A stretch of DNA of 63,990 nt, the filler included, from Cercozoa sp. M6MM (taxonomy: Eukaryota; Protista; Endomyxa: Ascetosporea), in NCBI GenBank assembly GCA_040357565.1. It is 8 parts of 8 records of this genome, joined end to end, with 100 filler letters (N's around TTAATTAATTAA, not from the genome) between each part and the next. Parts side by side here need not be neighbours in the genome. Positions count along the whole stretch, not along the records: positions 1 to 6,833 come from JBDODJ010000687.1; positions 6,934 to 12,359 come from JBDODJ010000911.1; 6 more parts are not named here. One strand, written 5' to 3'. The notes under the pieces are model-generated. The model was not told the DNA's origin. It saw only the letters and a list, made by a program, of their open reading frames with translations, and made no database searches. Below are positions 182-41,095 of the stretch, one piece after another. Position 1 is the stretch's first letter, and every line of letters starts with the position of its first letter. Position numbers and translations under genes: made by a program.

Positions 182-1909
182 GTATCACGCACGATGGCCG
201 ACAAGAAGGACCAGCAGCGCTTGTTCGATTTGCACCATCGCGAACTTGGGTTTCATCCTTTTTCGTTTTCTTGAGTGTTGGTGTGTTGCTTGCGTTGGTA
301 CGGCTTTGTTTGCAGAGGCAAGTTAAACCTAATGGCACCGCAGCGTCGTTGTCTACTCGTGTCAACACTTGACATGGTGCCTCCATTCATGAATTCCCTT
401 CATACTTCACGTTGTTATGTACGCAGGTGGAACGTCCGGGCAAACCTGCCGTTGCACACCGCTTCGCCTTGTGCAGCGACTTCTTGCTGATTTGTATCCT
501 TGATTTCGCAGTTATGTGCCTGGTACCGATGTGTTTTCTCCGTTGCCCAGTCGGTGTCAAGAAAGGTCTGCTGTCGGGTGCCCACAAGATCAAGGCTGTC
601 CACCCGCTGACCCAGATGAAGATCAGCAAGGTACACCTTTGTGTCAGGTCAGTGTGTTTGTGTTTGATGAGTTGGCTTGTTTCGCAGGTTGAAAACGATC
701 CGACTCTGCCAAACGCGGTGCGATTCTCAACCTTTTCGGGAACGTTCGTCGCCATCTGCAAGGACGCCAAGGAGCAGCGTCGCTGGCTAAAGCGACTGCC
801 GCAGGCGGTGAACCTCGAGAGGTACAACGAGCGTCCGACCAACCCGATTGACCTCGATAAACGCATTCTCGGCAAGCGCACATCGCCCGAGGGCAAGGCC
901 GACTACGTGCAGGTGACGGACGAGAAGAAACTCGCCGAGATTCGCGCGTGGCAGGTATTCGATTTTTTCATGCATAGTATGTACATGTATACACTGTGTG
1001 TCCTGCAGGCCGAGCGCAAGAAGACGACGGTGAAGCTGCCGCCACCACCAGAAGAACACAGCACGACGCCCACGTCCGCATCGACACCACCTGCTCCTCC
1101 TGCTCTCCCGAACGTTGAGGAACAGGCCGAGCAGAAGGAGCAGGAGGAAGGCGAGCAGCAGCAAACTGTTCCCCCACCGGCACCGAAGCCGCCAGTCCCC
1201 ACACCGCCTGTACCATTCGCTGTATGTTTAATGGCTTTTACTACACTGCACTGTTTACTGCTTATTTAGGCTCCAACACCGGCGACAGCGCCTCCGCCTG
1301 CCCCGCCTATTGGCACGACTGGACCGGCCGTTCCACCGCCTGCCCCGTTGCCGCCGGTGCCTCCACCTGCTCCCGTCGTGTACCCTCTGCTGCCTCGTCC
1401 TCTTTTGAAGGCTTTCTGTATGACCCTTTATGTAGCAGTCCCACGCCGCCTGCACCGGTAACAGCAGGCGCTGCTGACACGTCGAACCTCATGGCCGCCA
1501 TCCGTGCTGCCAAGGGTGGCTTGGCTGCACTCTTGCTGTATTTCTGTTGTGTGCTTGTGCATATACACAACTGCACAGGCACTGGACTGCGTCCGGCAGC
1601 CACGAAACCGTCAGCGTCGCCTTCTCCGCCTTCGCCGCCCTCTGGTCAGAACGGTCTGCTCGGTGCCATTCGCGGCGGCATCAAACTGCGTCACGTCGAT
1701 CGATCCGTACCCGCCTCCCATCTGTTGTGTGCTGAGGTATGAGTGGACTGGTTTTGTTTTTGCAGCAGCCAGTGGCACCGCCGGTCGAGGAGGAAGTCGA
1801 GCCGGCCCAGCAGGATATGTCAACGCTGCTGGAGAAGTCGCTGGCCAACTACCGCGCCTTTGTGCAAGACGTCAGCGACGACGAAAGCGACGACGAGGAC
1901 TGGGATTAA
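182..1909 (+). CDS. 5'-partial, 10 visible exons: PH domain (post-DH type), proline-rich region, two WH2 motifs and a central/acidic tail (WASP/VCA-like actin nucleation-promoting factor)
   Basis: Spliced translation VSRTMADKKDQQRLFDLHHRELGGKLNLMAPQRRCLLVSTLDMVERPGKPAVAHRFALCSDFLLIF resembles a DH-PH junction and PH strands. Poly-Pro follows, then WH2-like NLMAAIRAAKGTGLRP and GLLGAIRGGIKLRHV, then MSTLLEKSLANYRAFVQDVSDDESDDEDWD* (TAA 1907-1909). Confidence 0.8.
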
Positions 1910-2180
1910 GTTTGCGCTCCGACTGTCCGATCTCGTCTCACACGCACCGTCGCGTCTGCTGTGTGCCAGCGCTAGCGCTGCCGTTCAGGCTGAGTGTCTA
2001 TGTATCGTGAGGTCGTACTGTATCTATGTATCGTGGCAACATCAGTCCGTTTTCGTTTGTCGGTGTATGCGATATGCGACGGTACCTAGGCTCATATCAC
2101 ATCACGTATCAATTGAAAATTACGAGTCGCTTAGTTTGTGACCGTATTAGCGCGGCGGTCCATCGCGAACCGACGTGAGT

Positions 2181-4448
2181 TCAAAGCTCATGCTTCACGG
2201 GCTCGTCTGGCTCGAGGAAGTTTCGATTGCCGCGCTTCAGGGCAAAGTCCTGATCAGTCGCATCAATGATCTGGTCGAGCGGCAGTTCGACGAACTCGTT
2301 GGGAGACAGAATGGTTTCCACTATCAACAACACAGATACGATCCAAAACGGGGAGAAACTGATGTGAAGTACAGACTTGCGGCTCAGCGCACTGCTTGGC
2401 CAGAGCAAAGTCGCGCTCATTAAACACGATACTGAAGGCGTCGTGCAGCATTTTCTGCTCACACAGCACCTGGAGTAAAGGAGACAAAGGGTAGAAAACA
2501 GACAGTAAAACACACCACTTTGACATGCTCATGTGACTTGGCACGCAGCTTGGTTTCAGGCTCGATGTTGATCTGTCACGGAAGGTGCGAACTGGCTTAA
2601 AGAGCGAGCAACAGAGCACGTGAAAGAGCAGGTTAATCTACCTCCAACAAAGCAACGGAAAGATCATTCAAAACGAGCAGATCGACGCCGAACAGCTCAA
2701 AGCAGTTGGGGCACGGGAACTTTGCCAAGTGCTGCTGCGCTCGCCGGAATACGTCGGCCACGACACGATGTATCTACAGCAACATCAAAGGACGAAAAGG
2801 TAAAAGAGGTGGAGCACAACTAGCACTGTACCTTGTGCCAAAGCATATCCGCCTGCGGCTGGCCGTGCTCGCGTGCGACGTGGGCCAGCACGTTCGACAA
2901 GGTGTGACTCAAGCTGTCGCGGTCCTCCTTGTGCAGCGATGTGTTCGTCAAGTGGCGACGCCGGCGTTTCTCTTGATCGCCTACCTCGAAAGCAGCGTTG
3001 TCGTAGTGTCCCGGAGCGAAGCGAACCAGTCCGCGCGAATGCAAGTGCGCACGCATCTTGCCGTTCTGCAAGAAGGAAAGAAAGAAGAGTCAGCGATATT
3101 ATAGGCCCGCTAAGTGCTACCTGGACACGGTCGACGAGAACGTAAAGTCGCAAGTCAAACTTCTGGCGTGTCTTTTCGTCACTCGTCGGCAGCGTCAGCA
3201 CGTCACGACTGAGATGAAAGTGAATGGGTACAAAAAAAAAGTTAACTGAGACAGACTTAGAGTAAAGAGGTACATGAAATGCTGACAAATCGTTTTCGCG
3301 GACTCTCGGTTCGCATCGAAATACTCAGCGAACTCAGACTTTGACGTCACGAAAAACTGCAAACAAAGAAGGAAGGAAGGCTTGAAGTAAAAGGCAGGTT
3401 CAAAGTAAAGTGGGGGGAGAGAGGTACGATGCCACGTCCGCCGGCATTGGCGTTTGGCTTGCAGATGAGCACACGGTCCGAGTCACTGAGAGCCCCTTTG
3501 TGCACGTTGTTGTTTGCGACGAAACGGCGTGCCTTCTCGCGCTCCTTGTCGTTCCACATGAGGAAGGTTTCGGGTACTGCGAGAACACAGGTTTACCTTT
3601 GAGTCGATCTGCACACAACGGACAGGATGACGATATAGCTGACTCACCGTAGGGCGCGTCTTTGAGTGTTTCCGACAGTGGGCCCTTTTGGCCGACCTGA
3701 AAGCGCACCACGTCGATGCTTTCAGAGCAATTTCCATCAACGCTCAAAGTAAATTAACTGTACCATTTTGTTGTTGTGCACGTGGTTGAACTTTCCGCGC
3801 GGTGCTGCTAGGTCTAAAAATTTCGATTGTTGGAACAATGAGCGCATTAAACGGTATGTGTATTCTCGAGGGAAAGCACCTTCTTCGGCAAGAAAAAAAT
3901 CGGTGAATCGCTTTCGAAACGTCTGTATGCACCATACAGATTCCGATACAAACAGTTCGGTCGGGAGGGCAAAAATGAGAGTACGCCAGTTGAAATCCAA
4001 GTGAGTTGGAGGTTTTTAAGTCCAAGTTTCGCAATGTCTTCTTCGCTGCGAGCACCACCATTCATGTGGAAGTTGCCATCCTGTGCCCATACCATCCAAC
4101 TGACATTCGAATACTGCTTAAACACAGAAGGAAACAACTTACATCGTCTTGCAAGGTGCTGATTGGCACTTCTCCCCAACCACGCGAAGTCAAGGTGGTT
4201 GCAATCTGCACAGAAACAAGCATTCTTCGAACTCCATCCAGATTGCCCATAACCTCAACAGCGTTTCGACCCTATCTCGATACCTGACTTCCCCAACCAG
4301 AGGGGCGACGAATTCCGCCTTTCTTTGACGTCATGCGAAACACAAATGGTGCATCGGAGGTGTTGCAAACGGTTTCATCCAAACGATCTTTTGCTTCCTC
4401 ACTGGAACCAAAACTGGCAAGACCCAACACCAGAAAGGAAAGCCACAT
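2181..4448 (-). CDS. Tubulin-tyrosine ligase (TTL/TTLL) family ATP-grasp protein with an N-terminal signal peptide and C-terminal KHEL
   Basis: Spliced motifs FNHVHNNKMVGQKGPL, YVPETFLM, ICKPNANAGGRGI, KFDLRLYVLV, HLTNTSL and CFELFGVDLL...LLEINIEP. Starts MWLSFLVLGLASFGSSEE (alternative ATG at 4463) and ends PVKHEL*. Confidence 0.85.
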
Positions 4449-4686
4449 TTTTATGACACACATTTGGACTTTTGAGCAGCGCAGTATACAACTAGCAACC
4501 CAATATCGAGACGAAGCTAGCAGAAAACTGATGGCACCAGCGAATTTTGTTTTCCAACAACTCTGTCCTAAACTGTACTGTCCAATAATACTGTGCCTTT
4601 TTTACGATGTAGGCCCTGCGCTCATTTTCGGCAGCGGACGATCATCCCAGCCTTAGTTGACCAGCGAGCATACGCCAGAGTGTCCG

Positions 4687-6369
4687 ATGGATCAGGTACT
4701 CCGGCCCATAGAGGTCAATGAGCAGATCTTTGACGTCCAATACCATCCTTCGTCATCTTTGTTGGCGATTGCGCTTCTCGATGGCGAGGTAAACCCCCTC
4801 CCACTCCCCAAAAAGTGGCATGTTTAAGTTCTGCTCTCGCTCAGGTATCGCTGTACGACGTGAGCGGTCTGCCTAAACAGACGGCGCGTTTCACATTCCA
4901 CTCCGAAAGCTGTCGTGGTCTTGCGTTCTCGCACGACGGTGCGTTTCTCTACACGATTGGTCGCGATCGGTCGATCGGCGTGATCGACGTCGTCAATCAC
5001 ACCCTAGTCTTCCAACTGAAGTAAAAATACAGCTTTGTGTTTCCCTGCCAGCCTCTTATCCGTGTTAAACTCTCTGTTGCCAGAGATGCGCATGAGCACC
5101 CTATCAATGCCGTCGCTGTGTTCACGAAGACTGACGACACGAGTGGTGACTGCACCGATGAGTTCCTCATCACTGGCGACGATGTCGGCGAGTTGGTGCT
5201 CTGGTCACTCAAGGTAGCTTTCTTTCCGTGAAACTATGCGTGTCCTGACTGATAGATGTATGCATGTACTCTGTCCAGGAGGACCGCCGGCAACCGCGAT
5301 TGGTGCGCCGACTTCCGAAGGCACACTCTGACTGGATCTCGCGCGTCCTGCCGCTGCCCGCGCGGCGTCAGTTTCTTGTCACAGGTACCTCCGTTATTTG
5401 TTCTTGTTTTACCCTGTTATACCTGCACTTTGCTGTTGTGACAGGTGCAGATGGTGTGCTATCCATGTGGAACGTTGACGGCGGCGTGCAAAAGTTTAAC
5501 GGATCTGGAGTGCCTTTTCCTTGTGTTTCTTAATTTGTTGCCGACTTTGTTAACCCTTCAGCTGTGTTGTTTGTGCAGCCGAAACCGGCGCCGCGACCTT
5601 GGCTGGCCAAGAAGAGTCTTCCTGCCGGCGATGAGTTGCTGTCCGTGGCGCTCATCAAACACGGCAGGAAGGTCGTCACTGGCAGCACTGTACATCTCAC
5701 ATCTCACTCACAACTAATAACATTGATTCAAAACTGTATGTGCGCAGGAGGGTTTGTTGATTCTGTTCGACATGCGCGATATTGGCGACTACTGCGACCG
5801 CATCCCGGGCCATCCGCAGTCGGTGGAGCAGGTGCTTCCGATCGATGAGTCTGTCGTTTTGACCGCATCGTCCGATGGCATCATTCGCGTCGTTCAGGTA
5901 CTCTCTGTTCCTCTATCTGCCTGGCACATGTTTTAATATGCATGTGAATACTCGCACTGTGTAGATCCACCCGCACAAGCTGCTGGGTGTCGTGGGTGCC
6001 CATGGCGACCTTCCAGTCGAGCACCTGTGTCTCTCGCACGACCGTCGCACACTGGCGAGCAGTTCGCACGACAACACTGTCAAGTTCTGGGATGTACACG
6101 AGTTCTTTGAAGAGGACGACGAAGAAGAGGAGGAGGAACAGCAACAACAAGAACAAGACGACGAAGAGGACGAGACGGCTGAGAAGATGCAGCCACGCAC
6201 GCGGCCACGGTCACGCTCCGCCGTCATGGCTGAGAGCGACGACGACAGCGACAGTGACAGCGACGACGACAGCGACAGGCGAAGCAAGCGACGCAAGCAA
6301 AAGTCGCAGAAGATCAACGTTGGACAGGCCACGCGCATGGCGCGCAACGATTTTTTCGACGACTTGTAA
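4687..6369 (+). CDS. WDR55: WD40-repeat protein, WDR55/JIP5 family (ribosome biogenesis), 8 exons
   Basis: MDQVLRPIEVNEQIFDVQYHPSSSLLAIALLDGEV, DELLSVALIKHGRKVVTGS, DRIPGHPQSVE, LTASSDGIIRVVQIHPHKLLGVVGAH, LASSSHDNTVKFWD, then an acidic tail ending NDFFDDL*. Confidence 0.85.
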
Positions 6370-6833
6370 CCGAGCAGAGCGAAGTTTATCTTCGACCTGC
6401 GCCGCCGTCACGTTGCATCGTGCTGCGATAGGTCTCGCTTCATGATCAGTTTTAGTTTGCTTCCTTCAGTTGCGAAGGCCTGGATTCAGGCGGAGCGCCG
6501 AGTGGCTGATAAGACACACCAGTACGGTAGATAGTCTCTGGTTCAACCGACGGTGTGTGCGGATATGATATTGTACATGCGAAGAGTCTTCAGTTGTGAC
6601 AAACGCTATTAACACATTGATATTCCTGAGAGGTTCTTTTGCGTCTCACTGTAATCGACAGAGTTGCTGAACTAAAATGTTTCTGCTTGCGATTGCGTTG
6701 CAGCAATCTTGACGAACCCAGCAACTGTGAGAACGTATAGACAGGTTGGAACCATTGAACTGAACGTTCGCGGGGAATCACGCATCTTCATCCGATGCCA
6801 TCGACGGCGGTGCCAGCGCAGCGCAGAAGGCGT

Positions 6834-6933
6834 NNNNNNNNNNNNNNNNNNNNNNNNNNNNNNNNNNNNNNNNNNNNTTAATTAATTAANNNNNNNNNNN
6901 NNNNNNNNNNNNNNNNNNNNNNNNNNNNNNNNN
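6834..6933. other. Artificial 100-bp contig spacer (N-run, TTAATTAATTAA, N-run); also at 12360-12459, 17632-17731, 28248-28347, 51304-51403, 57783-57882 and 62750-62849
   Basis: The same 100-nt structure, with stops in all six frames, occurs seven times. Genes are cut at these points. Confidence 0.97.
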
Positions 6934-8723
6934 CCGAGTGTTACGCCTGAAACTGATAGGACGGACCTGAGCGTGGCCAATGCGCTGCGTCGTGTCATGA
7001 TCAGTGAGGTGCCTTGCATGGCCATCGATCACGCCTCGATCTTTGCGAACTCGTCGCCGTTGCACGACGAGATGCTCGCGCAGCGGATCGGCTTGCTGCC
7101 CGTACTATTACCCCCCCCCCGGCGTGCAGATTTTGTGCGACGACCTGGACAAACTGGTGGAACCACACAACTGCAAATGCGGTAGCTTTACTCATTTAAC
7201 CCCCCTCTTTACCTCTTCACCCCTCTGGACCCTCTTGACCCTCTTCACCCCTCTTCACCCCTTCTACCTCGCCCCCTTTTAACCCCATTATTCTTCTTTG
7301 TTACCTCTTATCCTCCCAGAAACATCGACGGACAATCTGCCCGGATGCAACCGGTGCAGCGCGCGCTTCGTCTGCGATGTCACCAACAACACCAACGTAC
7401 TCGCTCTCTGTCTTATCCCTCATCCTTACCTTGCCTGCCCTGTCCTACCCCACTTTTACCTCACAGGGTGTCATCCTCGTGACCTCCAAGGACGTGCAGT
7501 ACAACATGTACGGTCCGCCCGGCGTTAACTTCCGTGTGGCTACGCCTGATGTATCTTCTCGCTTACGGGGGGGGGGGGTAATGGAGGGGGTAAAAGGAGG
7601 TAATGAGTGGGTAGGAGAGTAAAGAATGTGTGTGCACGTAGGCACATGACACACTCCTCACGAAACTCGCACCGAAACAGAAACTCCAGTTCATTGCCAT
7701 TGCCTTTAAGGTGCGTTTGTTAAGGCTGTTGTGTTTGTTAAGGCTGCGCGATCCTTTGTTAAGACTGCGCGATTCTTTGTTAAGGCTGCGATGTGGTGTA
7801 TCTGTGTGTGTTGGCAGGGCATAGCCAAGGAGCACGCCAAGTGGCAGCCCGTATCAGTCGCCAGCTTCTTCCGTGTACACTGTCTGTATGTGTATATGTC
7901 TATGTTTGTATGTCCATGTGTACCTGTCCATGTGTGTGTGGTCCGTTTGTACCTGTCCATTTGTGCCTGTACAGGAGCCGGTGGTCAAGCTGCGGCCAGA
8001 CCTGCTGCGACAGATGACAGAACGACAGCGCGATCGACTGGTCGCTTCGTGTCCGAGTCGAGTGGTGCTTTGCCCCCCCTACCTCTTGTCCCCCTCTACC
8101 CTCTTTACCCCCTCTACCCTTTACCCCCTTCTACTTCCCTTCTACTCTCCTGTTGAATAGTTCCGAAGGCACGCAACGAAACTGGTCGACATTGAGGACG
8201 CACTGGCGTGCACTGTACCCTCCTGTTACCCCTCCCCTAGCCCCTGTGTGTTTGTACTCTAACGACATCAATGTCGCTATGTGGTTACAGTCATGTGGCG
8301 AGTGCATCGACCTGTGTGCCAACATGGGCACTTTGGCCGATGCCGAGGCCAACCCGGTAGCTTCCTCTCTCCCCCTCTTTTTTTTCTAACCCCCGGGTGT
8401 CAGGACGTGACCGTGGTATCGCACGCCAATATCGACCGAAACGCGCCGTTCGAGAAGGCCGTCGAAATCTCCGAGGTGCCGGACAGGTTCCACTTCCACG
8501 TCGAGAGCGCCGGTCAGCTCGCGGCCTGGCAGGTCGTCGTTGCTGCCTTGCGCAACCTGCGGCACAAGGTAGCTCGTCCTCTACTACCCTACGACCTGAT
8601 CCTAACTCTAGCACTTCCCCACCCTACCTCACTCCCTACCTTCCCCCTGGTCAGGTCAACTTCTTCACACAAGCACTCAAGGCAGAGACCACCGAAGACC
8701 TGCGCCAGAAGCAGCGCAAGTGA
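6934..8723 (+). CDS. RPB3: RNA polymerase II subunit RPB3 (alpha-like), 5'-partial
   Basis: [22 protein letters not shown]...[18 protein letters not shown], zinc loop CKC...[16 protein letters not shown] (Trp as in RPB3 rather than Phe as in AC40), [14 protein letters not shown] at 8721-8723. Confidence 0.85.
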
Positions 8724-12523: not shown

Positions 12524-12594
<71 letters not shown>

Positions 12595-13379
12595 TGTTTA
12601 TCCTGTCGGTGACGGCCGTGAAGGACGGTTATGAGGACTGGCTGCGTCACCGCGAGGACGATCGGTACAACCGCGCCTTGTACCAGGTGCTGCACCAAGG
12701 TAGTCTTCCGCCCTTTCCCTCCTTCCAGCTTGTATTTACCCCCGACCCCATCCCCGTGATTGATGTAACAGAAGGCGATGACGATGTCAACTTGAAGACG
12801 CTACGCAGTGACGAACTTAAGTGCGGTTAGTTTCCTCTCATTGGTTCAATTGGACGGTACAGTTGGACAGTCTCCTTGTGGACGGTTTCTCTATGTATGT
12901 TTGTGCAGGCATGGTTCTCCGACTGGAGGAGGACATGGCACTGCCAGCCGACTGCATTCTGCTCGTGTCGTCGCACTCGGACGGCACGGCCTACGTCAAC
13001 ACCTCTGCGCTCGATGGCGAGGGTGCTTTCGCCATGTTTCCTCCACCTACCCTACCCCTGCCCCCACCCCTACCTCTACCCTCCCCTCATCCTCCCTTCC
13101 ACAGCGGCGCCCAAGATGCGACGCTGCGTGCCACAGACGCACTTTTGCGGACAGGACAAGTCGCTGCTACACGGCCTCAGCGGCACCTTTGTGTAGCACT
13201 GTCTACTGTCTATACTGTCTACTGTCTATACCGTCTACTGTCTATACTGTCTACTGTCTAATTGTCTACTGTCTGCACTGTATCATGTGTGGACACGCTT
13301 GTTCAGCTCGCCTCCGCCAACTCGCGATTTGGACGGTTTCGTGGCGCGTCTCGAGATCGAGCCGCAGTCGCTCCAGGAG

Positions 13380-13427
<48 letters not shown>

Positions 13428-16400
13428 CTGTGTGCTAGACTATTAAGGGTGCTACCACTGGAGACTTAATAAGGGGGTGTGCTTTAGCTGGCGCGAATCG
13501 TGCGCGAGCGCGCCACGGGCTCACCTGCCGGCGATGCTGCTGTACTACCCTACCTTTATCTCACTTACGCTCTTACCCCTCCCCCTCCGACAGGAGGAAG
13601 AAGAAGACACCATGAACGAGAGCGAGGAAGACTCGGCGCTGTCGCAGCCGGTGGCACCTCTGGGTACCTCGCAGTCGATGTGTATGATATGGTGCTACTT
13701 GCGCTACTTGTGCGCATGTGCCCATAGGTGACCGAGAGCTACTGATGCGCGGAGTGAAACTTGTCAACACTGAGTGGTACGCCCTTCCCTCTCACTGGCT
13801 CCGTGTGACACGTGCCGACTGAGCGTATATGACATGTGTCACACCGACAGGGTCTACGCTCTCGTGGTCTACACTGGCGTCGACACCAAGCTCATGCTGA
13901 ACCGGCACCACACGCCCTTCAAATTCGCGCGATTCGAGCGACTGCTCAATCGATGCGTCGGTGCCATGGTGTGCCCCTCCCTCCTTTTACCCTTACCCTT
14001 TTGCCCTCTTACCCCCTTTTACTCTCTTCTATCCTTCAACCCTTTATCTTCCTAACCCTCTTTACACTCCCTACCCCTACCCCAGCTCGTGATGAACATC
14101 GTGCTGTGCCTGCTGCTGGCACTCGGACCGCAACTGGTGGACCACTCGCAGGTACTGTCCCCCCGACAGTCTTGTTCTCGAGGTAGGTACTGTCCAGGCG
14201 AGGTACTGTCCACTGTTGTAGATGGGACTCGAAAAGATCGAGTCGTCGGGTTTCAAGGATTTTATGCTGGATTTTGCCACGATGTGGGTGCTCAACTCCT
14301 TCATGGGTACGGTCCACTTTGCACAGTCCACTCTGTCCTATTCCGTCTGTACCGTATACCTGTACCGTCTCTCAGTGCCAATCTCGCTGTACGTGACGAT
14401 CGAGCTGGTGAAGCTCGTGCAGGCGCAGATGATTGAGTGGGACACCAGCGAGCAGTGCGTCAACTCGCGGTACTTGCGCCTGTCCGCGCTTGCACACCGA
14501 GTGACTGTGCGTGTGTGTGTGCGTGCGTGCGTGTGTGTGTGTAGAGTGCGAAACTCGTCGCTTAACGAGGAACTGGTAAGCAGTACCTAGCAGACTATAT
14601 AGAGATAGACGGTGCTATATATGGACGGTACAACATGGACAGGGCTCGATCAAGTACGTCTTCACCGACAAGACTGGCACACTCACGCAAAACCACATGG
14701 TGCCGTCTTGCTCCCCTGCTTCCTTTATCCCCATCCTACCCCTTTACCCCATCCTATCCCCCTGCACCCTGACTGTTGGTGACAGGTCCTCAACCGCGCC
14801 TGGATCGGCACCGAGACCGACACGCCGGATGACCAGTACATGCAATCTATCCGGGGAGGGAAGTGGCCAACCATCCGCGCGGATGGTCTGACTGTCTATG
14901 TGTGTGACAGCATTGACGCCGGCGCACTTTACTTCAACGAGGCCACTGCCGCCAATGTGCGCTCCTACGAGACGGCGCTGTCGCATCTGGTGCCTTTATC
15001 CCCCTTTACCCCCCCCCCTATTTTACCCCCTCTTTTACCCCCTCTTTTACCCTCTCTTTTACCCCTCTTTTACCCCCCATGGCGCAGGTGGAGCAGGCGT
15101 TCGACAGCGAGGGAAAGCCGAAACGCGGCACGTGCGCCTTCGAATTCGTGGCCTGCACGCTGGCCTCCAACGCTGCGCTGCCGCTTCGTACGGTAGTGTT
15201 TCCCCCTTTACCCCCTGTTACTCCTACCCCCGGCCCCCCCCCCCCCCCTGTACCGCGGCACAGCTGGTGGACAAGGAAGACGAGGACGTGCGGCACCTCG
15301 GCGTCGACGAGGAGATCGAACTGAGCGACGGCGAACGCGTCGAGTGGCGCTTCCAGTCGTCGTCGCCGGACGAGGTCTCTTTGTCCACTTTACCACCTGA
15401 CCCTCTCCCCCCTTAACCTTATCATTGACCCTCCCTTGATCCTTGCAGGTGGCATTCCTGGAGGCACTGCGCGACAACGGCATCACACTGACACAGGTGT
15501 GTGTGTATGTGTGCGTTTGTGTGTGTGTTTGTGTGTGTATGTGTGCGTATGTGTATGGTACAGAGGACAGGCAACACTGCCGCTGCAGTGCTGTCCAAGG
15601 GCGACTGTAGTTTACCCCCCCCCCCTCTTTATCCCTTTACCTTTTTACCCTGCCCTGTCCGCAGACTACAACAACGAGGAGCTCAACTTTGCGTTGCTGG
15701 CGCAGCTCGATTTTTCGTCGGCACGCCGTCGCATGTCGGTGGTACTCTTGCCCCTTTTACCCCCCCCCCCCGCCTGCCGCTCTCCTTCCACCTTTATTCC
15801 CCCATTCAGGTGGTCCGAGACGCGGCTGGTCGCATCGTGCTCTACACTAAGGTACCTTAGGGTGTGTGTGTGTGTCACCTGTCGTACTTGTGTACATCCG
15901 TGGATGCAGGGTGCTGACTCGCTGCTGATCGAGGACGGTGAGATGTGTCGCCCGCGCGGACTGGCGTCGTGCAGCTCCGCACTGGAAGCCTTCGCCAGCA
16001 CAGGTACGTATATATTCACGCATGGACCGTCCACATGGCCTGTCCTGTCCGTATGGACGGGACTCTGTGTGCGACCTGTTTTGTACCGTACATGTGTGCC
16101 GTACGTGTGTACTGCAGGTGCACGCACTCTGTGCTTTGCGTGGCGCGAGTTGGACGCCGCCGAGTTTGAGGAGTGGTATCCCAAGTACCAGGTAGGTTTA
16201 CCCCTTGCCCTCCATCCTGCCTGCCCCTTTCTTCCCCGTTACCCCTTTTGCCCCCCCCCCCCCCCTATTGCAGAGAGCGTCGACGGCGCTGCACGACCGC
16301 GAGAAACGAGTAGAAAAGTACCGATCACTCTGAGTTATGTATCATCTGAGTGGCTGGCTAAGGGGACGGTGTGGGGATCAACTGAGTGGGGATCAACTAA

Positions 16401-17617
16401 AATGGGGATCAACTGAGTGAGTGGGACACGTGCGCACGTACAGGTGCTTTGCGCGCATCGAGCGCGACCTGACGCTGGCGGCGGCCACTGCCGTCGAGGA
16501 TCATCTGCAGCACGGTACCACACCGTCAGTCCCCAGTCACTCTGTCACTGGCACCGTCCGAGTGACCACTGACCACGTGACCAAGTGAGCACGTGTGCAG
16601 GTGTGCCAGAGACGGTGGCGGCGCTGCTCGAGGCCGGCATTGAAATCATGATGCTCACTGGCGACAAGGTACTTCTTAATTCTTACCCCCTCTTGCCCCT
16701 ATCCTTACCCCCTCCCGTTACCCCTCGCAGAGAGAGACGGCAGTAACGATCGCGCGGCATGCCTCACTGATCGGACCCGAAGACCGCGTGGAGCACCTCG
16801 AACTCGCCACGTGCGCGCAGCAGCTCGGCACGCTCGTCGACGGTGTGTTTATCCCCCCCCCCCCTGCCTTCCCCCTTTACCCCCTTTACCTCCTTTACCC
16901 CGGCAGAGTTCCGCTCTCAAGAGGGCAGCGCGGGCGGTCGCAAACGTTCCTTCGTCGCGGTCATCACGGGCGACGTACTGGAGCGATGTCTCAAGTAGGC
17001 AATTCTTACCCCCCCACCCGCCCTAACCCTTTACCCCTTTGCCCACTTGACCCCAGCACGTGTCCGCAAATGCTGGCGCAAGCCTTCCGCGCGGCATCGG
17101 CATTCGTTTGTTGTCGTGCCACGCCGAACCAGAAGGCCGCCATGGTACCATGTTGTGCAGTTTGGACGGGAGGGTTGGATTAGGGGAAGGGGTCGGTACA
17201 ACTCTTGGTCCGTTTGAACAGGTCGATCTGATCCGACACGACGAAAGCACCGAGGAGCACCATTTGACGCTGGCCATTGGTGGTAGTTTCTTTTACCCCC
17301 CCCCCCGCCCCCTCTTACTCCCCCTTTCCCCCCGCCCCCGTGTGCAGACGGTGCCAACGACGTCTCGATGATCCAGGCCTCACATGTTGGAATCGGTACA
17401 AACCGGGCCTTTGTTTGGACAGGTCTGTACCGACGCTGTTAAGGAGGGCGCACGTGCAGGTATTCTCGGCAAGGAGGGCGCACAGGCGGCGCTGTCTGCC
17501 GACGTGGTTGTTCAGGTGGGATTACCTTTACCCCCCTTCCCCCGCGCCCCTTTACTCCTTTTACCCTCCTGGTGGTGCAGAGATTCGCTGCACTCGAGAG
17601 GTTACTCTTCGTGCACG
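12595..17617 (+). CDS. P4-type ATPase (phospholipid flippase), truncated at both ends by spacers
   Basis: [66 protein letters not shown] (phospho-Asp motif), [68 protein letters not shown]. Confidence 0.95.
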
Positions 17618-18380: not shown

Positions 18381-21359
<2,979 letters not shown>

Positions 21360-21775
21360 CTGGCTTAATACCTGCTCAGACACCTCACTTAGGTGAACAG
21401 CTTTGGGGCACCCCTGTGCGCCTCTTCGCTGTTTTGACGATCAGCAGTTGGCTGCGAGCTGTTCTTCAGCAGTTGATTCATTCGCTGAGCATTTTGTCCA
21501 GCCAACAGCCGATCGTAAGATACGATTTACTGTGGGCAGTAGATCCAGCATGTTTCCCACTGCATCGTCACAACCAGGGACAACCTGGCTTCCATTTTAC
21601 TCTAACCTTGCGGTCCCACTTGTGCAGTACAGTCCCTGCTTTTCCATGAACACCCCTGCGTGTTCGGACTTTTGGTGTCACCCGCGACTCAGATCCTCCT
21701 ACCGTAAAAGAGGGCGGCTCTAGAGCAGCCGTGGCGTGTGTGACTGTGTGTCCGTGTCAAACAAGACCCAGTGAC

Positions 21776-23248
21776 ATGTTCGTCGTGCTCACGACCGCAA
21801 TTTTACTGGTCTCGGGCGCACTCGCATCTGGTGTTGTCTCCGAGTCAGAGCGCAGCAGCGAGGTCGACGCTCTGTTCGCCGATGCATTGACACAGTTCGT
21901 TGCTAGGCATGCGTAAGTTGCACCTTGTGTCACTTTGTGAGTAAGTGCAAGCATGTGTGTTGTGCTCTGTTTAAAGTTTAAAAACTATTTAGGCCAGATA
22001 AGGTGAAGCAAGAGTGCGTCGTGCTCAATGAGTGCCTAGTGACGCCGAACAGCGAGCCTATTATGCCCGCGTATTACCCTACACACGTGGTCTACGGACT
22101 CTGCGATACTTCTGCTCCTGTCGAAACGCCGCGCACGGTGTCCAAACGCGACACTTCGACGCAGGTGCACTTTTTGCCTGCCTTGTTTGGCTGTCTCGAA
22201 TTGCTATACTCGTTTTGTAGATGGTATCGGCATGCAAAAAGTGCTCAACACGTTTGATCGGAGGTGTGACCATCGCTGCTGCGTCTGTTGCGGTACCCTA
22301 ACTGTGCTTTTGTTTTTTGACGGACACTGAAACAACCTCGAGTCCTAAAAATGTACCAAGTAGGCGTTGTTAAACCCGACACAAGTTCGCGTTCGAAAGT
22401 CGAATTTGCTGGTGGATGTTGTTTCTGTTGGAAAGAGGTACCAGATGCCACTCGTTTGCCCTGAAACTGTACTTTATTTGACCTTCTACCTTGCCTGGGG
22501 CAACAGCGATTTTGTTGCCAAATACACAAGAGACCAATGGCACACTGTCCGGATTGACAAGTGCGCGCAGCTGCAGACTCAGTACAACGCGCTCTCGGAA
22601 GAGATACGTCGTCTACGGGGCGTCAACGATGCCATCGCTCAAGAGAAACAATCGCTGACAGCTTCGATGACTCAACTCAATGGAAACTCGCGAGGTAACC
22701 TTCTATTTTAGTTCTTCATCAGGTTCTTTCTATTGAGTTTCCTGAGCTGTCTTTAAACTTCAGGGCGCAAGAAGAGACCGAAAAGTGGAAACGACACGTC
22801 AAGCAACAAGCGACTTCGACTGAAGCAAGCACGCAAACCAATGTGCCTGAAGAAGAAATGCAAAATTTACTTCAGCTTGAGCAAGAACGAGTGCAACATG
22901 AAGAAGAGACTGTGCAGCAACAGGAAGAGGTCTTAAGTTCTTCCTTCTTTCATCCTTTCTTTTCAAATAACATAAATATAGTTGCCGAAGTGGGTGCAAA
23001 AATGGAATCCTTCGCACGCGGTCCTGCCCAATACCTTCCACTACGTTCTGTGTGTCCTGGAAACTGACTCGGTTTGTTATCCCTTTCCTTCCTCCCAAAA
23101 AACTATACAGTTGTTGACTGACCTAATTCCTTGCACGCAGGAAGAAACAATGCTCCCACCGAGCACTCCATGCAAGATACTGCCTCTACACAATATGAGT
23201 AACTTTCTTGAAGCTTACTTGGATTTGTTCTTCTATCTCTCCGTGTAA
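21776..23248 (+). CDS. Hypothetical secreted protein with a coiled coil; reading frame of the 3' exons ambiguous
   Basis: Signal-peptide-like MFVVLTTAILLVSGALA. In-frame GT-AG splicing leads to CAQLQTQYNALSEEIRRLRGVNDAIAQEKQSL. Stop at 23198 or 23248 depending on frame. Confidence 0.55.
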
Positions 23249-23709
23249 AATAGAACCCCGGGAGTACTCTTCATTCGATCGTCGCTTCCTACGTACTTGG
23301 TTTTCTGTTAGATGTGTGGACCTAAGGTCATTCCGTTTATTCTTTAGTGGTGCACCCGGAACCCGTCGCGTTGCATCGCCTGTGGCTCCGAGTCTATCCA
23401 TACGAGTACTCATCATCCTAGTAAAATTACCTCTCACTCAATTTAGTTTTCCTTCGCTTTCGCAGTCAGAACGAGAGAGAGGAGTACCTGCTCAAGGTGA
23501 CTCCAGTTGCCGAAACTGCAAGCGGCAATGGTTCACGCAGTCTTCCTGTGGTACGTACTTTCTCATATCCTGTGTATGAACTATGTAGTATTACGATTCT
23601 CGCAAGTAGCAAATTCAAGTGCATCGTGCATCTCAAGTGTCCAGATGTTTCTTCGTTGACACCGTGCTTTCATCTCTTTTTCTGAAGAAAAACAAGTTTT
23701 ATTGTGTCG

Positions 23710-26700
23710 ATGCATTCCCTCCAGATCGTGGTCCAACCGCTCTCGGCTTTGCCGACCCCTGAGTTTCGTCCCAGGGGCTCAGGCCAAGCCGCACAAGTCA
23801 CACAACTCAGTTCGCATGTGTTCTTGGTTCCTAAAAAGCTTTGGGGTACCACTGTTTCCACTCAGGCAACGTGTTTCCTTTCTTGAAACCTTCCCTGTGT
23901 CAAAAAAATAGGCAAACGAATCGTGCTGAAGCTGGTAAAAGCCTTGATCGCAGACGTACAATGTCATTCAGATGTGAATCTTGTGAGTCTTAGATTTTTT
24001 AATTTTATCCCTGCCTGATTCAGGTGGACTCAAATGCCACGTTGGCCGTCGGTGTCAAAGCAGCGAATACAGAGTTGGACACCATATCGTATCGACAAAA
24101 CATGGTGACTTTGCAACTGCCCACAGAGGCGACATCTATCGTTGTCACTTTCGCCTTGGAGTTGACGGTAAGACAGCTGCTTGCTCTGTGTGTAGCGGTC
24201 GATGATATCAGATATGAGCAGTCGCAAGAGACTAAAACACTGCTGCCAGTGTCAATAGTGCACCTGGTGCCTTCCAGCGACAGTGCTCTCGTGTCTCAAA
24301 TGCCAGCACCGACCGAACACCTAGAACGCTTCCTAGCCTTGCAGAAGTTCATGAGTCTGACTACGCAGTGGCAGGTGCGTTTCTCCATGTGTCTGTACCT
24401 TTGTGTTTTTGACTGGACTAACTTACACTTTTTTAACAAAACCTTGTAAAATTTAGTGGAACGAACATTGTCGAGTGAACTTTCCCCAGGGAGTAGGTTT
24501 TCCTTTTCTAGTGTCACTCTGTCTGTCGAGATATAGCACTTTCTGTTGAAGGAGGTGGCACATGCGTGGTTGCAAGTGAGTCTCGAGGACGACAGTGTCA
24601 TGTTTCCGACGGTGACTCTGCGTGCCACACCGACAGACACCGAAGGCTCAAGCGTCGACGTGCTGTCACTACTGCTGCCACACCTGTCGGAAGAGCAAGC
24701 TACCTTGCAAGCTCTCATGCTTGAGTTCAGGTGCTTTTGTTCTCCTCTCTCTCTTTTTAATGTACCCGTATATAACTCGACAGACAAGTGAAGTTACGAG
24801 TCACAGCACACTTGAATGGTCGAAGTATTGCGCTGACTCGTGGCGACGCTGACACATTGATCACCGTTACGAGCGATCAGAACACGCTCACTCTGAGTGG
24901 CAGCGATACTGGTACTCCCCTACCTAATTCAGTTAGAAGGCACGTCCACGGGTGTATGTGACTTGTAGAGACCCACGTGTCGGCACAGTTGATACTCTTA
25001 CCAGTGTCTAAAAGTACGCACAGCTTTCTGGACGCAACAGGCAGTGTTGCAGGCGCATCGACACCTGCCTCACCGATGATGTCGCCAGTGCCCTGGCCGA
25101 CGCGATTCTTCTTCCGTCGGCCCGAGTCGGTAAGTTACATTTGTTGTAGGTACAGCAACTATTACAGCAGATGTCGCTTTGGCCCCCAGGAAAGTACGAA
25201 GACATCGCAAGTACGCCTCAGTTTGGAACACGCCGAGTTGGCCACGCTGCTGAAGTTCCTCCCAGTCGGGTACAGATACTCTTCAGTACATCAGATTGTA
25301 TAGTGTCCAAGTTAAATGAGGTTATAAGAGTTCTAATGTGGAGCAGAGACACGCGGTTGCAGCTACAGCTGCAAGGGAGCGACGTGGTTCTACAAGCTCC
25401 GACAGAAGTCAGTCAGGTACTGTATACATTGACACAGACATCGTACTTAGTTGTATGCACAACTTTCTTTGAATTTTAGCTTTCGATCACGATCAGCGCG
25501 TTTGGACTGCCTCTATATCCTCTGCGTACCTTGGCTGTCTTGATGCCTTGTGTCCAGTAGCACATATAATAATTTGTTTACCTTAGGTCTCATCTTGGTG
25601 CTGGAGGATGGCAAAAGCTCGAAGGTGGCCATGCCTTTGCTGAGTGCTGCTCAGTTCGATTCCGCTCGTTTGTTGGGTACAGTCTTGTCTTCCCTCCTGT
25701 GTTGGATGTAGTCCCTTCAATACCCTTTGTAAAGGAGCCTACCGTGACGACATTCTGCTGAAGTCGCAGTTGCTGGAGCATGTGTCGCTGCTGCAAGAAA
25801 CGACTCGTCACGTGAGCGACGAATTTCTCCGCGAACGCATGACGGAGACTCTGAAGCTACTCGAAACTCAGACGAAGCAAACTACTTTGGCGCACGCACT
25901 GCCTTTGCAAGCACCCTGCATTATCAATGGCCCCGATATGCTGATACAAGAGGTGCACTGACGTTCGACACATAGGTGGCTTCTTCTGTTGTCCGTTGTA
26001 CTGTAGTTCTTGTGCATGGGTAGCTTCGAGTGCAACTGTTGGACACGGTGACACACAAGAGACGCACACTGCGCCTTCCGATCTCGTTGAAGCACCTCGC
26101 TGTCTCTGACGACTTGAATGTAGTTTCCGAACAGTGTGCATGCTTTGCATTGGTATCCTATGCCTACCTGAGCGTAGACGATCTACCTTACCGGGCGACT
26201 TCTGTTCGAGTTGCGCGGCATGAACCCATTGTAATTTACTCTGCACTTAAACTTCGCATGTTTGAAACTGTGTTGGGCACTGTAGATCCACCAATGTCGA
26301 GGAGATCACTACGATTGTCTACGACGCAGAGGCCCGTGCTTTGACTGGTTGGTTGTCCAATACTGTATGCCCCCTTTGTGAATAAAATGGGAGGCCAAAC
26401 GCGTGCTGTGAATGCACAGACAAGCTCGCGCAAAGTCACCCCAGTGCGGCGCTGGCCCAGGCACCTGCGCAATTCTCGGTGAACTTTACCGATTCCAGCG
26501 AGAACACTGATCAGGCTGGCATGGCCTACGTGCTATTGTACAGTCGCGCTTCTCGTCGACTCGCCAATGTGTACGTTTGCATCCGCGCGGAAGGTCTTGA
26601 ATGACTTGCGTATAATAAGTACTGTAGGAGAACGATGCATTTCCATCCGTTCGTCAATCATGTTGCTGTGATCTACACCTCGCCAGACAGTGGTAGCGGA

Positions 26701-27546
26701 CACCTTGGGGTCTCCTTTCTTTGCATCGACAGCGTATGTGCGTCTGTGGCAGACAAGAAGCGCAGTGTATCACTTCAATTCAAGCCGGTAATGTCGCTGA
26801 TGACTTTCGACGGTGCTGCGCCGTCCGATGTGGTCACCCTGCTCGACACCGATGATGCCAATCGAGAGGATACCGGCGCTAGCAGTGTTCCTGCAACCGT
26901 GCCCGATTCCGATGCTGTCGGTGGCATTCGCTGGCAGTCGCAATCGGTCGGTCCTGTCCGTGTTGGTTCCGAAGTGAACATCAGCTTCCGCATGGTACCG
27001 CTTGCTTTAACTCTCAGTGGCTGTACCTGTCGAGTTGAACTGTTGAGCAGCCTGACGGAGTGGCCAGTCTGCACTCAACGCCGACCACCGAGCAGCAGAT
27101 TCGCGTGACTGATGCGAGTGACTTGAGTCAGCTCCTGCAGGATCTGCTGAGCCACAGCAGCGGCGGCTGTGAGCTCGGTTTCGCTGTCTTCGGCTACGTC
27201 AACGGACAAGTCGCCGATGCCAGTGACTTCGAATGTCAGTGTACCTCTACTTTAAGCCCACTTCTTTCACCGCGTGACAATGGCCTAGGTACTAAAAAAC
27301 TAACTGACTATGTGTGGTACAGTGCCGCTGCGTCGCTCCATGCTGATGTTCACGTGCCGTCCGCAGCGACCTGGCACGCTCGCTCTCGCCTTCCGTGTCA
27401 GTGTCCAACCCAACAGTGACGGCGCTATCTGCGAGAGTGCCGGCATGTGGTGGAATCTCGACGTACCTGTGCTCGTCGAGCCTCCCCTCGAGGCCACCAA
27501 CGCCACCAACCACCCGAAACCTGAATTCGAACAGTCTGCAGACTGA
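23710..27546 (+). CDS. Large multi-exon hypothetical protein with a beta-sandwich-like C-terminus; start uncertain
   Basis: Regular exon/intron alternation ending MLMFTCRPQRPGTLALAFRVSV...WWNLDVPVLVEPPL...SAD*. Loosely reminiscent of TRAPP large-subunit C-termini but not assignable. Confidence 0.55.
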
Positions 27547-31057: not shown

Positions 31058-31471
31058 TTCTCGTGCACCCTACGCAGCAATTCCATTTGTTGCTAGCTCC
31101 CGAAAAATGAAATGATGATCAAGTTTATCACTACCTCGAAACAACAGAACACAGTAAAAGGCTACATGCACACAGTGGCGCTGCCTTGTGTAGAACCCAA
31201 CATGACGAAAGAAAAACTTTAAGAGGGTGTTCAACCTCTCCCGGCTCAGAATATTTCGACTTGCTCTGCCTGAAGTCTGGGCTGCGCGCCGTGTCCCGAT
31301 TGCTTTCAGTGCGTTTAAAGTAAACTCTACACAAGTCTGCTCACACTACTACCGCCAGGCATTGAGTTCCACCAAGTTCAATCAAATTAATTTTTTGGTT
31401 GAGCGCAGACTTGGTTCAACTGGTGGCATCCGCGCGGACGCCAGCGTTTCTGTGCGCGACAAACCGTCAAA

Positions 31472-34400
31472 ATGGCAACGCGTGGCAAGGCGCTTAACAC
31501 CACAGGTGGCGCCCGGCGCTTCCGCTTCCAGTCGTACGCTTTTCTGAAACTCAATTTTGTGTCATCAGTATCAGTGATGGGAGGTTCTGTGCAGTTTCTC
31601 TGATCGTGTGGCGGCCATTGATGTCGGTGTCGCACGACTGCGCTCGTAAACTTTTGTTTCAGATTATAGGCTCTGTTATACGGATGCGACGCTCTGAGCA
31701 GCCGTCGGTCGGAGTTGACGAAGGAAGCTTTGATCAAGGAGGGCATTGCATCGAGTGATGTGACCACGTTTGGCCTCGAACTTCGTCGAATATTGCAGTT
31801 GGACAAGACCGTTTCGTTTGGGTACGTTGTGTGTTGTCTGAGGTTGTTAAGGGCTGTCTTGTATCTTTTGTATGTGTGCTCAGCAAGGTGGCCAAGCCGC
31901 TGCTGCCGCTGACGCACACGCTGCCACTGGTGCTGCACCACAAGCAGCTCATCGTACAGGCGTTGCTGCAGCATCTACAGGCGGCGCGACCGTCGGATGA
32001 CCGTGCTCGTGATGTTGTAGGTTGTCGTATCGCCTTCTTTCTGTCAGCATGAAGTCTACTTTTTTGTTTGACTGCGCAGGCGGACACGTCGGCGACTCTC
32101 CACTGCCTCGAACTGACCGGCATCCTGACCAAGGAGCTGCGCGACGAGATGCTGCCCTACCTGGATGAGTGTGCCGCGGCTGCAATGGCTCTCGTTGACC
32201 CACGGTACCACCTTGTACTCGCTTTCTCGAGATCTCGTCTTTGATGTTACTTCCTGTCATTGCAGATGTCCGGAACTCGTGGAAGCAGCCCTGCAGTATG
32301 TCTCGCTCTGTGTATGAGGTGTTGTATCCATGTAAATGTGTGTGTGTATCAGGTGCATTGGCATGCTGCTGAAGTTTCTGCAGCGACACTTGATGACTCC
32401 AGGCGCCATTCGCCGCCTGTACGCGCAGGTGTTCCTGCGCGTGCTGTGTGCGCACCAGCCCTTCGTGCGACAACACGCAGCCGAAACGTTTGCCTACTTG
32501 CTGCGTAGTGCTTGTGAAGTTATGTCGTCCAAGGTACGTGTTTTGCTGCTCTTAGACACCCCCCCCCCCCCGATACCCATCTGTGTAGGACCAAAAGACA
32601 GTTCTGCAGCACTTGCTGGGCGAGCGACCAGACGTCGCGCATCAGAGAGAAGTCGTCGACGGCACGGCGTCCGTGGTGTTCGAACACTTGCGCGGCGCGA
32701 ATCGGCAGCTGCACACGCAGTTCGACGATCTATTCGCGCGCTATCTCCGCGCACTGCATGCTGCCCATACGAGTACACTTTCCATCTTTCCTTTGTCATT
32801 CCCTGTTGCTCCCTGTGTCGGACTCCTTGTTACACGCACACAGAGGAGCAAGACAGCGCCTTCGCGAGTGCCGTTCTGCGCAGCGCCGTCGCCAAACTGA
32901 CCGAGCATGGCGACAAGGACTCGATTCTGCCTCTCGTGCAGGTGCCTGCGTGCTGGCTATATATGTATATACGAAGATATGATGTATGCGTGAGTGTATC
33001 CGTAGGCACTCACCACGCGCATCACGAAACTGAGCGCGTTCGCCTCGAACAAGACGGGCGACAGTGCCGATGCTGCGATTGAACAGGTGTTTTTGGCGTG
33101 TTGGTCTTGTGTTGGCCCGCATATTGATGTGAGGTTCGCTGTACAGACCGGAGTGCTGCTGGCTGCGCTGGCGCACATGATGAAGCACCGTCATCACGCT
33201 CGCATGTCTGCCGCTGCCTACTCGTTGTATTGCCTAGTCTAGCAAGCATTGCCCCATGTGCTCGTGCCTCTGTTGTATGTTTGTGGCACTGTGTTTAGCT
33301 GCGTCGAAGCCGTGTCTGTCGTCAAGAGTCAGTGGTGGCGGCAGCCACACGAACACGTCCTCGTGGCCAAGTCGCTGTGCAGCCTGCTTGACACACTGCG
33401 CAAGTGCAGGTGCTCTCTCTCTCTCTCACACACACACACACTTGCTCATGCTCATGCTTTACCTTGTTCTGTACCTCACTGTGCCTTCCTTTGACAGGTC
33501 GCATGCGAACGAGTCGGACAGCCGAGCGTTCGAAAAAGTGCTACCGCTGGCGTTTGTTTCACACGCGCCGTGCGTAGTCCCAGCGCTGCGCGAACTAGTG
33601 GCCGCCATCACGGGCACGTCGCTGCACCCCAGTACGGCGGGCACTCCGCTGCCGTCACAGCAGCACGCGCAGGTACTTGCTGCCTAGCTTTTTGCGCTGT
33701 GCACACACATATAATTTGGTGTGACCCAGGTGACCTGCGACACAGAGACACTGCAGCTGGTTTCTCCTGCACTGACGACGCTGCTGGAGGCGCGGCAAGT
33801 CGCGCTGCGCGTGCGACTGACGCTGGTGGCTGCCTTGGGCGCGCCGCAGCACGAATGCGCGCTGGCATCAATGCCGCAGCTCCGACAGGAACTGCATGAC
33901 GTCATGGTGCAGCACACGCGCGGACAAGGACACCGAGACGCGGCGCTGCTGCTGATGTCGCTGCGAGCACTGCCATGGCTGCGGGACACGAGTGCTCTGC
34001 AGGACACGGTGGCCTCGCTGTTCGACAGTCTGTGTGACGCCGTGAAGCGACAGAGCTGCAGTACTACCGAGGAGGAGACCGAGACCATGCCGATCGATAA
34101 CCTGGAGACTGCACGCAAGCGACGACACCTGTGTCTGGTCGGCGCTGCTGCCCGTGCACTACCGGGTGACAGGGTGCTGCTCAAGCTACTCGCACTGCTG
34201 AAGGAGGATGCCACCTCGAGACTCAGCGTGTCGCTGCTGGAGGCTGTGCAGTACGCCATTAACAGCGCCGATACTGAGTCGATCGGCGTCGACACTGAGA
34301 CAATGATCGCTCTGCTTCTGCCTGCTTTGTGGTACACTGCCCCTATCCCTCCAAACTCCCTGTGTACGTGTTGTACCCTGTGCAGCCACCCACACCTGAG

Positions 34401-36890: not shown

Positions 36891-36956
<66 letters not shown>

Positions 36957-38522: not shown

Positions 38523-38566
<44 letters not shown>

Positions 38567-40438: not shown

Positions 40439-40485
<47 letters not shown>

Positions 40486-41043
40486 GTCTCTGTCTCTGTC
40501 TCTGTCTGTCTGTCTGTCTGTCTGTGCGTATACCTGTCCATTTTGATCGTGATTGCTGTGATGTTGCGCAACAGGTGCTGCCGCGTCTGCTACAACTGCT
40601 GCGTGACCCACGCACACTCTCGGTCATTGACTCGCACGTCGCCGGTACTCTCTCTGTCGAAGCTTGGATTTGCGTATCGGGAGTCAGATCTGACACATGT
40701 GTACAGGCGCCATAATGTCGGTGGCACGGCGTTTGCCGGCGCACGTGTTCCGCGCGGAACTGCGCCGTCTTGTGATGATCCTGGCGCAGTCGCTGCGCAC
40801 GCGCGAGGTCTCCATTCGCGACCAGAGTCGCTCCACGCTGGTTTGTTTCGCTTTGTCTTTTTGGACTATTACACTCTATGATGTGGGTGTGTGTGCAGGT
40901 GCAACTGTGTCGTTCCGACTGCGTGGACACGTCGCACTTTGCCATGCTGGTACAGCAGCTGCGCAGTGCACTGCAGCGAGGTCACCAGGTGCATGTCCTG
41001 GCCTACACGATCCACCAGGTTTGTTGACACTGAGTGCCCATAC

Positions 41044-41095
<52 letters not shown>

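Follow-up and report, generated by a model that had tools for sequence, protein, structure and literature searches.

The window analysed here is a 63,990-nt stretch of DNA from the genome of Cercozoa sp. M6MM, and its subject is the 5' splice sites (donors) of the intron-rich genes that it carries. M6MM, a marine rhizarian amoeba, is currently named Lemnamoeba sinaloensis, and its 27-Mb genome has been reported to contain 13 introns per gene, with a mean length of 82 nt and GT-AG ends in 99.5% (PMC13746701). The genome is intron-dense, with 53% GC. The window consists of eight contigs joined by spacers of 44 N, TTAATTAATTAA and 44 N (positions 6834-6933 and six similar places), and neighbouring pieces are not necessarily adjacent in the genome. 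Across 163 predicted donors of this window, the consensus is G/GTAC-N-TT (the slash marks the exon-intron boundary), in which +5 is nearly free, with no G consensus and no selection for C.

The 163 donors belong to 21 gene models and were obtained as two sets. Set 1 comprises 80 donors placed by exact spliced mapping of four database proteins, among which P0001, P0019 and P0028 are Cercozoa sp. M6MM proteins identical to the window (the queries being single exons, and the 84% query match of P0028 being owed to intron read-through in the query), and P0020, a P4-ATPase, maps exactly as well. No slide of a set 1 intron yields the same protein with GT/GC..AG ends, and 22 of the 31 junctions of P0020 lie, as read by eye, in gap-free alignment to a solved P4-ATPase. 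Set 2 comprises 83 donors from a donor-blind gene model, which used codon usage, intron composition, length and acceptor and knew the donor as 'GT' alone. In leave-one-gene-out runs this model recovered 61 of the 80 mapped donors, and 35 of 37 calls agreed with the mapped donors at a score margin of at least 3; on 17 further regions it made 174 calls, 91 of which were discarded (margin below 3, or GC). The margin filter penalises donors with a second in-frame GT nearby (e.g. GTAGT), not +5G per se, and the unfiltered 173 GT calls gave counts similar to those of the filtered set (+5G 39). Expected counts were derived from each intron's own composition and from order-1 and order-2 context models. 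The M6MM draft annotation was trained with RNA reads (PMC11069148). Metagenome-contig relatives, found at 76 loci, were all distant (best segments mostly 22-48% identity) and were excluded from the analysis.

The donor information lies at -1G and +3A (1.35 bits at +3), with weak contributions from +4C (0.17 bits) and +6/+7T, and +5 holds 0.07 bits. Over all 163 donors, G occupies -1 in 109; +3 is A in 118, G in 31, T in 10 and C in 4; +4 is C in 86, T in 31, G in 25 and A in 21; and +5 is C in 59, G in 36, T in 36 and A in 32. Both +6T (85, with 58-59 expected) and +7T (88) are enriched, with 54-59 expected overall. The excess of +4C (50-53 expected, p<1e-7) persists in the C-poor half of the introns (41 of 82), and it is accompanied by a depletion of +4T (58-69 expected) and by +4A at about background (26-30 expected). 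As for +5, the 36 G amount to 22% (95% confidence interval 16-29%) against 26-29 expected (p 0.025-0.1), which is a background level without avoidance, and T is reduced (52-59 expected). The slight rise of +5C (44-50 expected; p 0.005-0.06 depending on the background model) stands beside 26 against 24-27 expected in the 80 best-supported donors. The two sets agree with each other (+5G in 20/80 and 16/83, +4C in 48/80 and 38/83), and both strands agree too; the kinesin gene is the exception, with +4A in most of its donors above the margin. Sorted by class, 48 donors are AG/GT, 6 are GTRAG and 109 are neither, and 45 lack both -1G and +5G.

The same positions distinguish the real set 1 donors from 256 unused GTs within 25 nt: -1G (68% vs 11%), +3A (76% vs 10%), +4C (60% vs 23%) and +7T (59% vs 29%) all discriminate, and +5G does not (25% vs 24%). 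A model-free count in six gene spans with 155 modelled introns gave 32 GTRAG on the sense strand and 53 on the antisense strand.

The original prediction, drawn from 26 donors of three genes (ten RPB3-like and seven WDR55 donors now placed by exact mapping, and nine donors of a VCA-labelled gene that are donor-blind calls, several of low confidence), had described a GTACCY consensus with +5G and +4A almost absent. Its tallies were nearly reproduced, with A6 C14 G1 T5 at +5 (5/15/1/5 originally) and A2 C14 G5 T5 at +4 (originally +4C 15 and +4A 2), and the near-absence of GTRAG donors was borne out. However, the rarity of +5G does not extend beyond those genes, where it occurs in 35 of 141 donors (25%, Fisher p=0.018), so that the 26 donors are an extreme draw for +5G; +4A is rare in the 26 and about at background overall. 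The GTACCY pattern is seen in 3 of the 26 donors and in 13 of the 141 outside the three genes, and +5C, claimed as a signal, lies about at background, an outcome that the prediction had itself named as counting against it. The suggested reliance on U5 contacts or intron length agrees with the importance of the exon side, as seen in the -1G contrast between donors and unused GTs. The observation was real, yet overstated and partly misdescribed: +5G is unselected, +5C is not a signal, and +4C is.

Donor positions are not independent of one another. Donors without -1G carry +3A in 48 of 54 cases, against 70 of 109 with -1G (p=0.0008 overall, p=0.024 in each set), and carry +5G in just 9 of the 54 (-1G vs +5G, p=0.32); it is +3A, not +5G, that makes up for an absent -1G. 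Among the +4A donors, +5G is found in 9 of 21 (3.5 expected, p=0.004), and this association is a persisting remnant of the standard donor class. Of the 86 +4C donors, 9 have +5G, with 10.8 expected given the scarcity of CpG in introns; of the 77 donors with another base at +4, 27 have it, with about 18 expected.

Exonic sequence was compared as well (13 gene models, 9252 codons; here the slash marks the codon boundary). The junction nGT/AA occurs twice against 28 expected, about fourteen-fold down, and the other xT/AA junctions occur 8-10 times against 23-32 expected; GTAA is avoided in exons as if it were still a strong donor, the comparison being post hoc and one of 16. For nGT/AC the count is 10 against 21 expected, with controls of 9-13 against 16-24, i.e. 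no extra avoidance. T/A codon junctions are depleted two- to three-fold in the coding sequence, and because this holds for all xT/A junctions, exonic avoidance of GTAC is uninformative as an independent test; GTAA alone stood out.

All 80 mapped introns have GT-AG ends, in a search permitting GT or GC with AG only, and intron length has a median of 68 nt (5th-95th percentile 53-121). Hallmarks of U2-type introns are present, including -1G, +3R (149 of 163), phase 0 (87 of 163) and a YAG acceptor with a pyrimidine at -3 (77 of 80), whereas the +4A/+5G part of the U2-type consensus is not. The branch motif YTRAY occurs in 41 of the 159 introns, compared with 43 after shuffling, and CTRAC in 17 compared with 11, and the branch-point search in these introns found nothing above shuffles apart from this weak CTRAC/CTGAC excess. 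Species rich in introns often have weak branch points. A shifted register was rejected (mean consensus matches of 5.5 at register 0, 3.3 at -1 and 2.9 at +1). Loss of METTL16, which is reported to shift +4 toward U (PMC9803359, PMC11732430), is unlikely in view of the depleted +4T. No small nuclear RNA (snRNA) gene was found within the window by Rfam, at the gathering score and at E<=0.5, and hallmark motifs of U1, U2, U5 and U6 gave isolated matches and nothing more.

Table 1. Genes, donors and other features along the window
Feature	Position	Strand	Basis and content
'VCA protein' gene, 5'-truncated	182..1909	+	PH-like, proline-rich and acidic-tail segments; label by eye; donor-blind model
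Donors of VCA-labelled gene (9 modelled)	250, 377, 494, 631, 955, 1195, 1378, 1516, 1707	+	+5G 0; 5 above margin
Gene with 9 modelled introns	2187..3799	-	Donor-blind model; 5 above margin: +4C 4, +5G 1
WDR55 gene, 7 introns	4687..6369	+	Exact mapping of P0019; Pfam WDR55 above cut-off
WDR55 donors	4789 GTAAAC, 5021 GTAAAA, 5214 GTAGCT, 5385 GTACCT, 5510 GTGCCT, 5690 GTACAT, 5898 GTACTC	+	Exact mapping
RPB3-like RNA polymerase subunit gene, 10 introns, start near contig end	6997..8723	+	Exact mapping of P0001; homologue alignment
RPB3-like donors	7102, 7182, 7397, 7551, 7711, 7875, 8065, 8215, 8357, 8569	+	+5G 1, +4C 6
Short intron of RPB3-like gene	7102-7129	+	28 nt
Inverted intergenic element, first copy	8759-9211	-	
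Inverted intergenic element, second copy	10845-11426	+	
GTACTT..TACAG stretch	11142-11219		78 nt
P4-ATPase gene fragment, 31 introns	12594..17442	+	Exact mapping of P0020; +5G 10, +4C 18, +4A 2
GDA1/CD39 apyrase gene, 16 modelled introns	18387..21386	-	7 above margin: +3A 6, +4C 2, +5G 1
Orphan gene, 32 introns	21776..27546	+	Exact mapping of P0028; +4C 20, +5G 9, +4A 6
Large gene, 66 modelled introns	31471..46578	+	Donor-blind model; 39 above margin: +3A 25, +4C 20, +4A 2, +5G 9
Kinesin gene, AT-richer stretch, 16 modelled introns	47168..50493	-	Pfam Kinesin; 7 above margin: +4A 5, +4C 1, +5G 1
Two similar orphan genes	51411-53394, 55845-57228	-	
Introns filled with repeats (examples)	7182-7319, 13969-14085, 14990-15087, 62202-62502		TTTACCCC-like degenerate repeats

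Several gene labels are by eye. The VCA-labelled gene had no Pfam match on two pieces tested, nor had the large gene on two pieces, for which the label UTP20 is unconfirmed; the gene at 2187..3799 resembles the tubulin-tyrosine ligase family by eye, with no Pfam match on one piece. A La-like gene, also labelled by eye and without a Pfam match on one piece tested, is flanked by the two similar orphan genes. At residues 172-207 of P0001, the RPB3-like protein has a CPxxxF..CxxCxxC insert, whose 4Fe-4S match in Pfam is weak and falls below the cut-off; several aligned homologues share the insert, and the named nematode RPB3 does not. The short intron of this gene is half the usual minimum and has a C run inside, so it may be shortened by the assembly.

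The inverted intergenic elements are 450-580 nt long, 80-90% alike and possess short complementary ends; the copies have no Rfam match and fold ordinarily (z 0.19 and -1.25). A non-autonomous transposon is one possibility for them, an unrecognised RNA gene another. The GTACTT..TACAG stretch of the second copy is missing from the other, by precise intron loss or by deletion between short repeats; as precise intron loss it was set aside and not counted as evidence, a 5-nt slide scoring better. Degenerate TTTACCCC-like repeats fill many of the introns, and the TAA[G]n motif, which is of their reverse-complement type, has been described at contig ends and within contigs (PMC13746701).

The sequence tells where the donor information is located, and the mechanism that reads it is what we infer. 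With moderate confidence, these introns are proposed to be removed by the major (U2-type) spliceosome, whose U1 and U6 would keep their standard pairing sequences, a short junction core replacing the +4A/+5G pairs, i.e. likely an otherwise ordinary spliceosome with a shifted reading of the letters. In this scheme, U1 and U5 loop 1 would hold the core from -2 to +3, the pairing of +5G with U1 C4 and the U6 ACAGA box would be optional for most introns, and the narrow intron length (about 55-120 nt), together with the T-rich bases after the donor, would supply the missing specificity via intron definition. Proteins, more than snRNA sequence, would have changed, for example through the loss of a factor of the LUC7L or SNRNP27K type. 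Unchanged snRNA pairing sequences are ranked first because most published shifted-donor cases keep them. Unchanged snRNAs with a lost downstream signal were reported for Stentor (PMC9505925) and the Bigelowiella nucleomorph (PMC6461891), the loss of LUC7L in Paramecium bursaria was linked with loss of the +3 to +6 consensus while snRNA motifs were unchanged (PMC12862383), and +4C donors coexist with a standard U1 in Thecamonas and Mamiellales (bioRxiv 10.1101/2022.06.08.495308). As well, the gene-family losses of M6MM were found to be enriched for splicing terms (21 of 77 orthogroups, false discovery rate 0.0025), with ids not named in the supplement (PMC11069148). The enrichment of +5G in +4A donors and the extra rarity of nGT/AA in exons are signs of working standard pairing.

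Several points weigh against this account, which leaves the +4C preference unexplained; a standard U1 pairs with A at +4. The +4C donors are compensated neither by -1G (p=1) nor by +5G, and the non-C donors are somewhat richer in +5G, a pattern as of a paired base at +4. No branch-point or strong 3' signal that carries the missing information was found in the introns searched. The lost-+5G precedents in the published cases have introns of 15-25 nt, and the introns here are about three times longer. Moreover, the junctions come from protein mapping and gene models, and the splicing-loss table comes from a draft assembly.

The main rival, possible if on the unlikely side, is a rewritten U1 (ACGUAC, as reported for Mastigamoeba balamuthi) with G facing +4, in which the extra G-C pair of the contiguous G/GUAC helix would make +5G superfluous in U1 binding, with U6 docking relaxed. 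It is consistent with +4C being the modal base in set 1, in set 2 and where introns are poor in C, with +4C donors being unaided by -1G or +5G while +4A donors are enriched for +5G, with the enrichment of +6T as the next U1 pair, and with one published case of the same change (10.1101/2022.06.08.495308). However, a standard U1 is retained in two of the three +4C lineages described in that source, and +5G is present in each of the three consensus donors that it quotes for Mastigamoeba and Mamiellales. In the present donors, +4C reaches just 53% and 0.17 bits, exonic nGT/AC is avoided no more than the controls, unlike nGT/AA, and the kinesin gene has +4A in five of seven donors.

It is quite doubtful that solely -1G, GT and +3A are read and that the +4C excess stems from mutation bias or intron origin (e.g. 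GTAC-type target sites) and not from recognition. Inside introns, C follows TA in 129 of 314 cases, interior GGTA is followed by C in 10 of 23, which is indistinguishable from donors in this small sample (p=0.26), and +4 in the kinesin gene tracks local composition. Against this, the 86 +4C exceed the 53 expected under the order-2 context model (p=4e-8), the excess is seen both after GTA (67/118 vs 46/147) and after GTG (17/31 vs 57/261), real donors differ from nearby unused GTs in +4C as given above, and the text of the genome paper reports no introner signal (PMC13746701). The introns of the orphan gene with 32 introns are T-rich, with 22% C, yet 20 of its 32 donors have +4C, which argues that +4C is no by-product of C-rich introns.

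An altered U6 ACAGA box, or a different handling of m6A, under which C would be favoured at +4 and +5 left unpaired in the activated spliceosome, appears improbable. The GTRAG class, of which U6 pairing is the defining trait (PMC9803359, PMC11732430), indeed numbers 6 of the 163 donors, and 109 are neither AG/GT nor GTRAG. On the other hand, ACAGA is reported to be retained even in Entamoeba, Stentor and the nucleomorph, and the depletion of +4T is opposite to the effect of METTL16 loss and fits a methylated U6.

It is very improbable that wrong donor calls produced the pattern as an artefact and that the true donors are GTRAG: although the database proteins are themselves predictions, and the donor-blind model matched just 61 of 80 mapped donors before filtering, sense-strand GTRAG is too scarce (32 for 155 introns), the 22 homology-pinned P4-ATPase junctions give the same pattern (+5G 8, +4C 13, +4A 2), and all 173 GT calls of the model still give +5G 39. 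U12-type introns or U12-like machinery, to which the original prediction had pointed and which C as the commonest +5 base (59/163) might recall, are hardly credible, given 2 GTATCCT donors among 163, a CCTTRAY branch motif that occurs in 2 of the 159 introns, where 2.0 are expected, and in neither of the GTATCC introns, the depleted +4T, the dominant phase 0, the favoured -1G and the report of no minor-spliceosome components in the rhizarians surveyed (PMC11347168).

Beside the proposed standard pairing, we take seriously, as a tentative possibility, that the U6-ACAGA-dependent donor class has been almost given up in normal-sized introns of an intron-dense eukaryote, with G/GUAC read via a U1 rewritten to ACGUAC or via an altered U6 box. 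If true, this would be a natural experiment showing that roughly 100,000 introns can do without the +5G checkpoint. The pairing of +5G with U1 and U6 is treated as near-universal in the recognition of donors, and the common view is that a donor needs GURAG unless its exon side is strong; the 45 of 163 donors that lack both -1G and +5G, at ordinary intron length, contrast with that expectation. They bear on the open question of whether U1 binding or U6 docking is the step that sets donor sequence in evolution, and they are relevant for gene prediction in Rhizaria. Donors with +4C and the loss of +5G in tiny-intron lineages are already known, and no description of +4C with +5G loss in normal-length introns of an intron-dense genome was found in the literature searched. 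The text of the genome paper uses 'splice' once, for the GT-AG share, and its supplement text contains neither 'splice' nor 'logo', while the supplementary figures might hold one (PMC13746701). The pattern may extend wider in Rhizaria and hence be less unusual than it appears.

Among known systems, Mastigamoeba balamuthi, an intron-rich amoeba with GUGCGC donors and the U1 sequence ACGUAC, has +4C in GT-AG introns in common with M6MM (10.1101/2022.06.08.495308). Mastigamoeba and Mamiellales retain +5G in the consensus donors that are quoted for them, whereas in M6MM +5G is at background and +3 is A. Thecamonas trahens and Mamiellales, as described by Roy and Bowser (10.1101/2022.06.08.495308), resemble M6MM in +4C while having a standard U1. 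In Stentor coeruleus, Paramecium bursaria and the Bigelowiella natans nucleomorph, donor information is down to GU/GUA plus the exon side, like in M6MM; however, introns are reported to be 15-16 nt in Stentor and 18-23 nt in the nucleomorph, against a median of 68 nt and a positive +4C preference in M6MM. According to the two-class model of animals and plants, the AG//GU and //GURAG donor classes are linked with loop 1 of U5 and the ACAGA box of U6, and +5G permits any -1 base (PMC9803359, PMC11732430). An exon/intron-side trade-off exists in M6MM as well, in the association of -1G with +3A, but the partner of -1G is +3A, not +5G, and //GURAG, about half of the donors in the animals analysed, is nearly missing. 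Entamoeba, with GUUUGU donors and a co-evolved U1 (10.1101/2022.06.08.495308), resembles M6MM in its shifted +4 base and its +7 T preference; it is intron-poor with a strict consensus that includes +5G, whereas the signals of M6MM are degenerate and its genes hold 13 introns each (PMC13746701).

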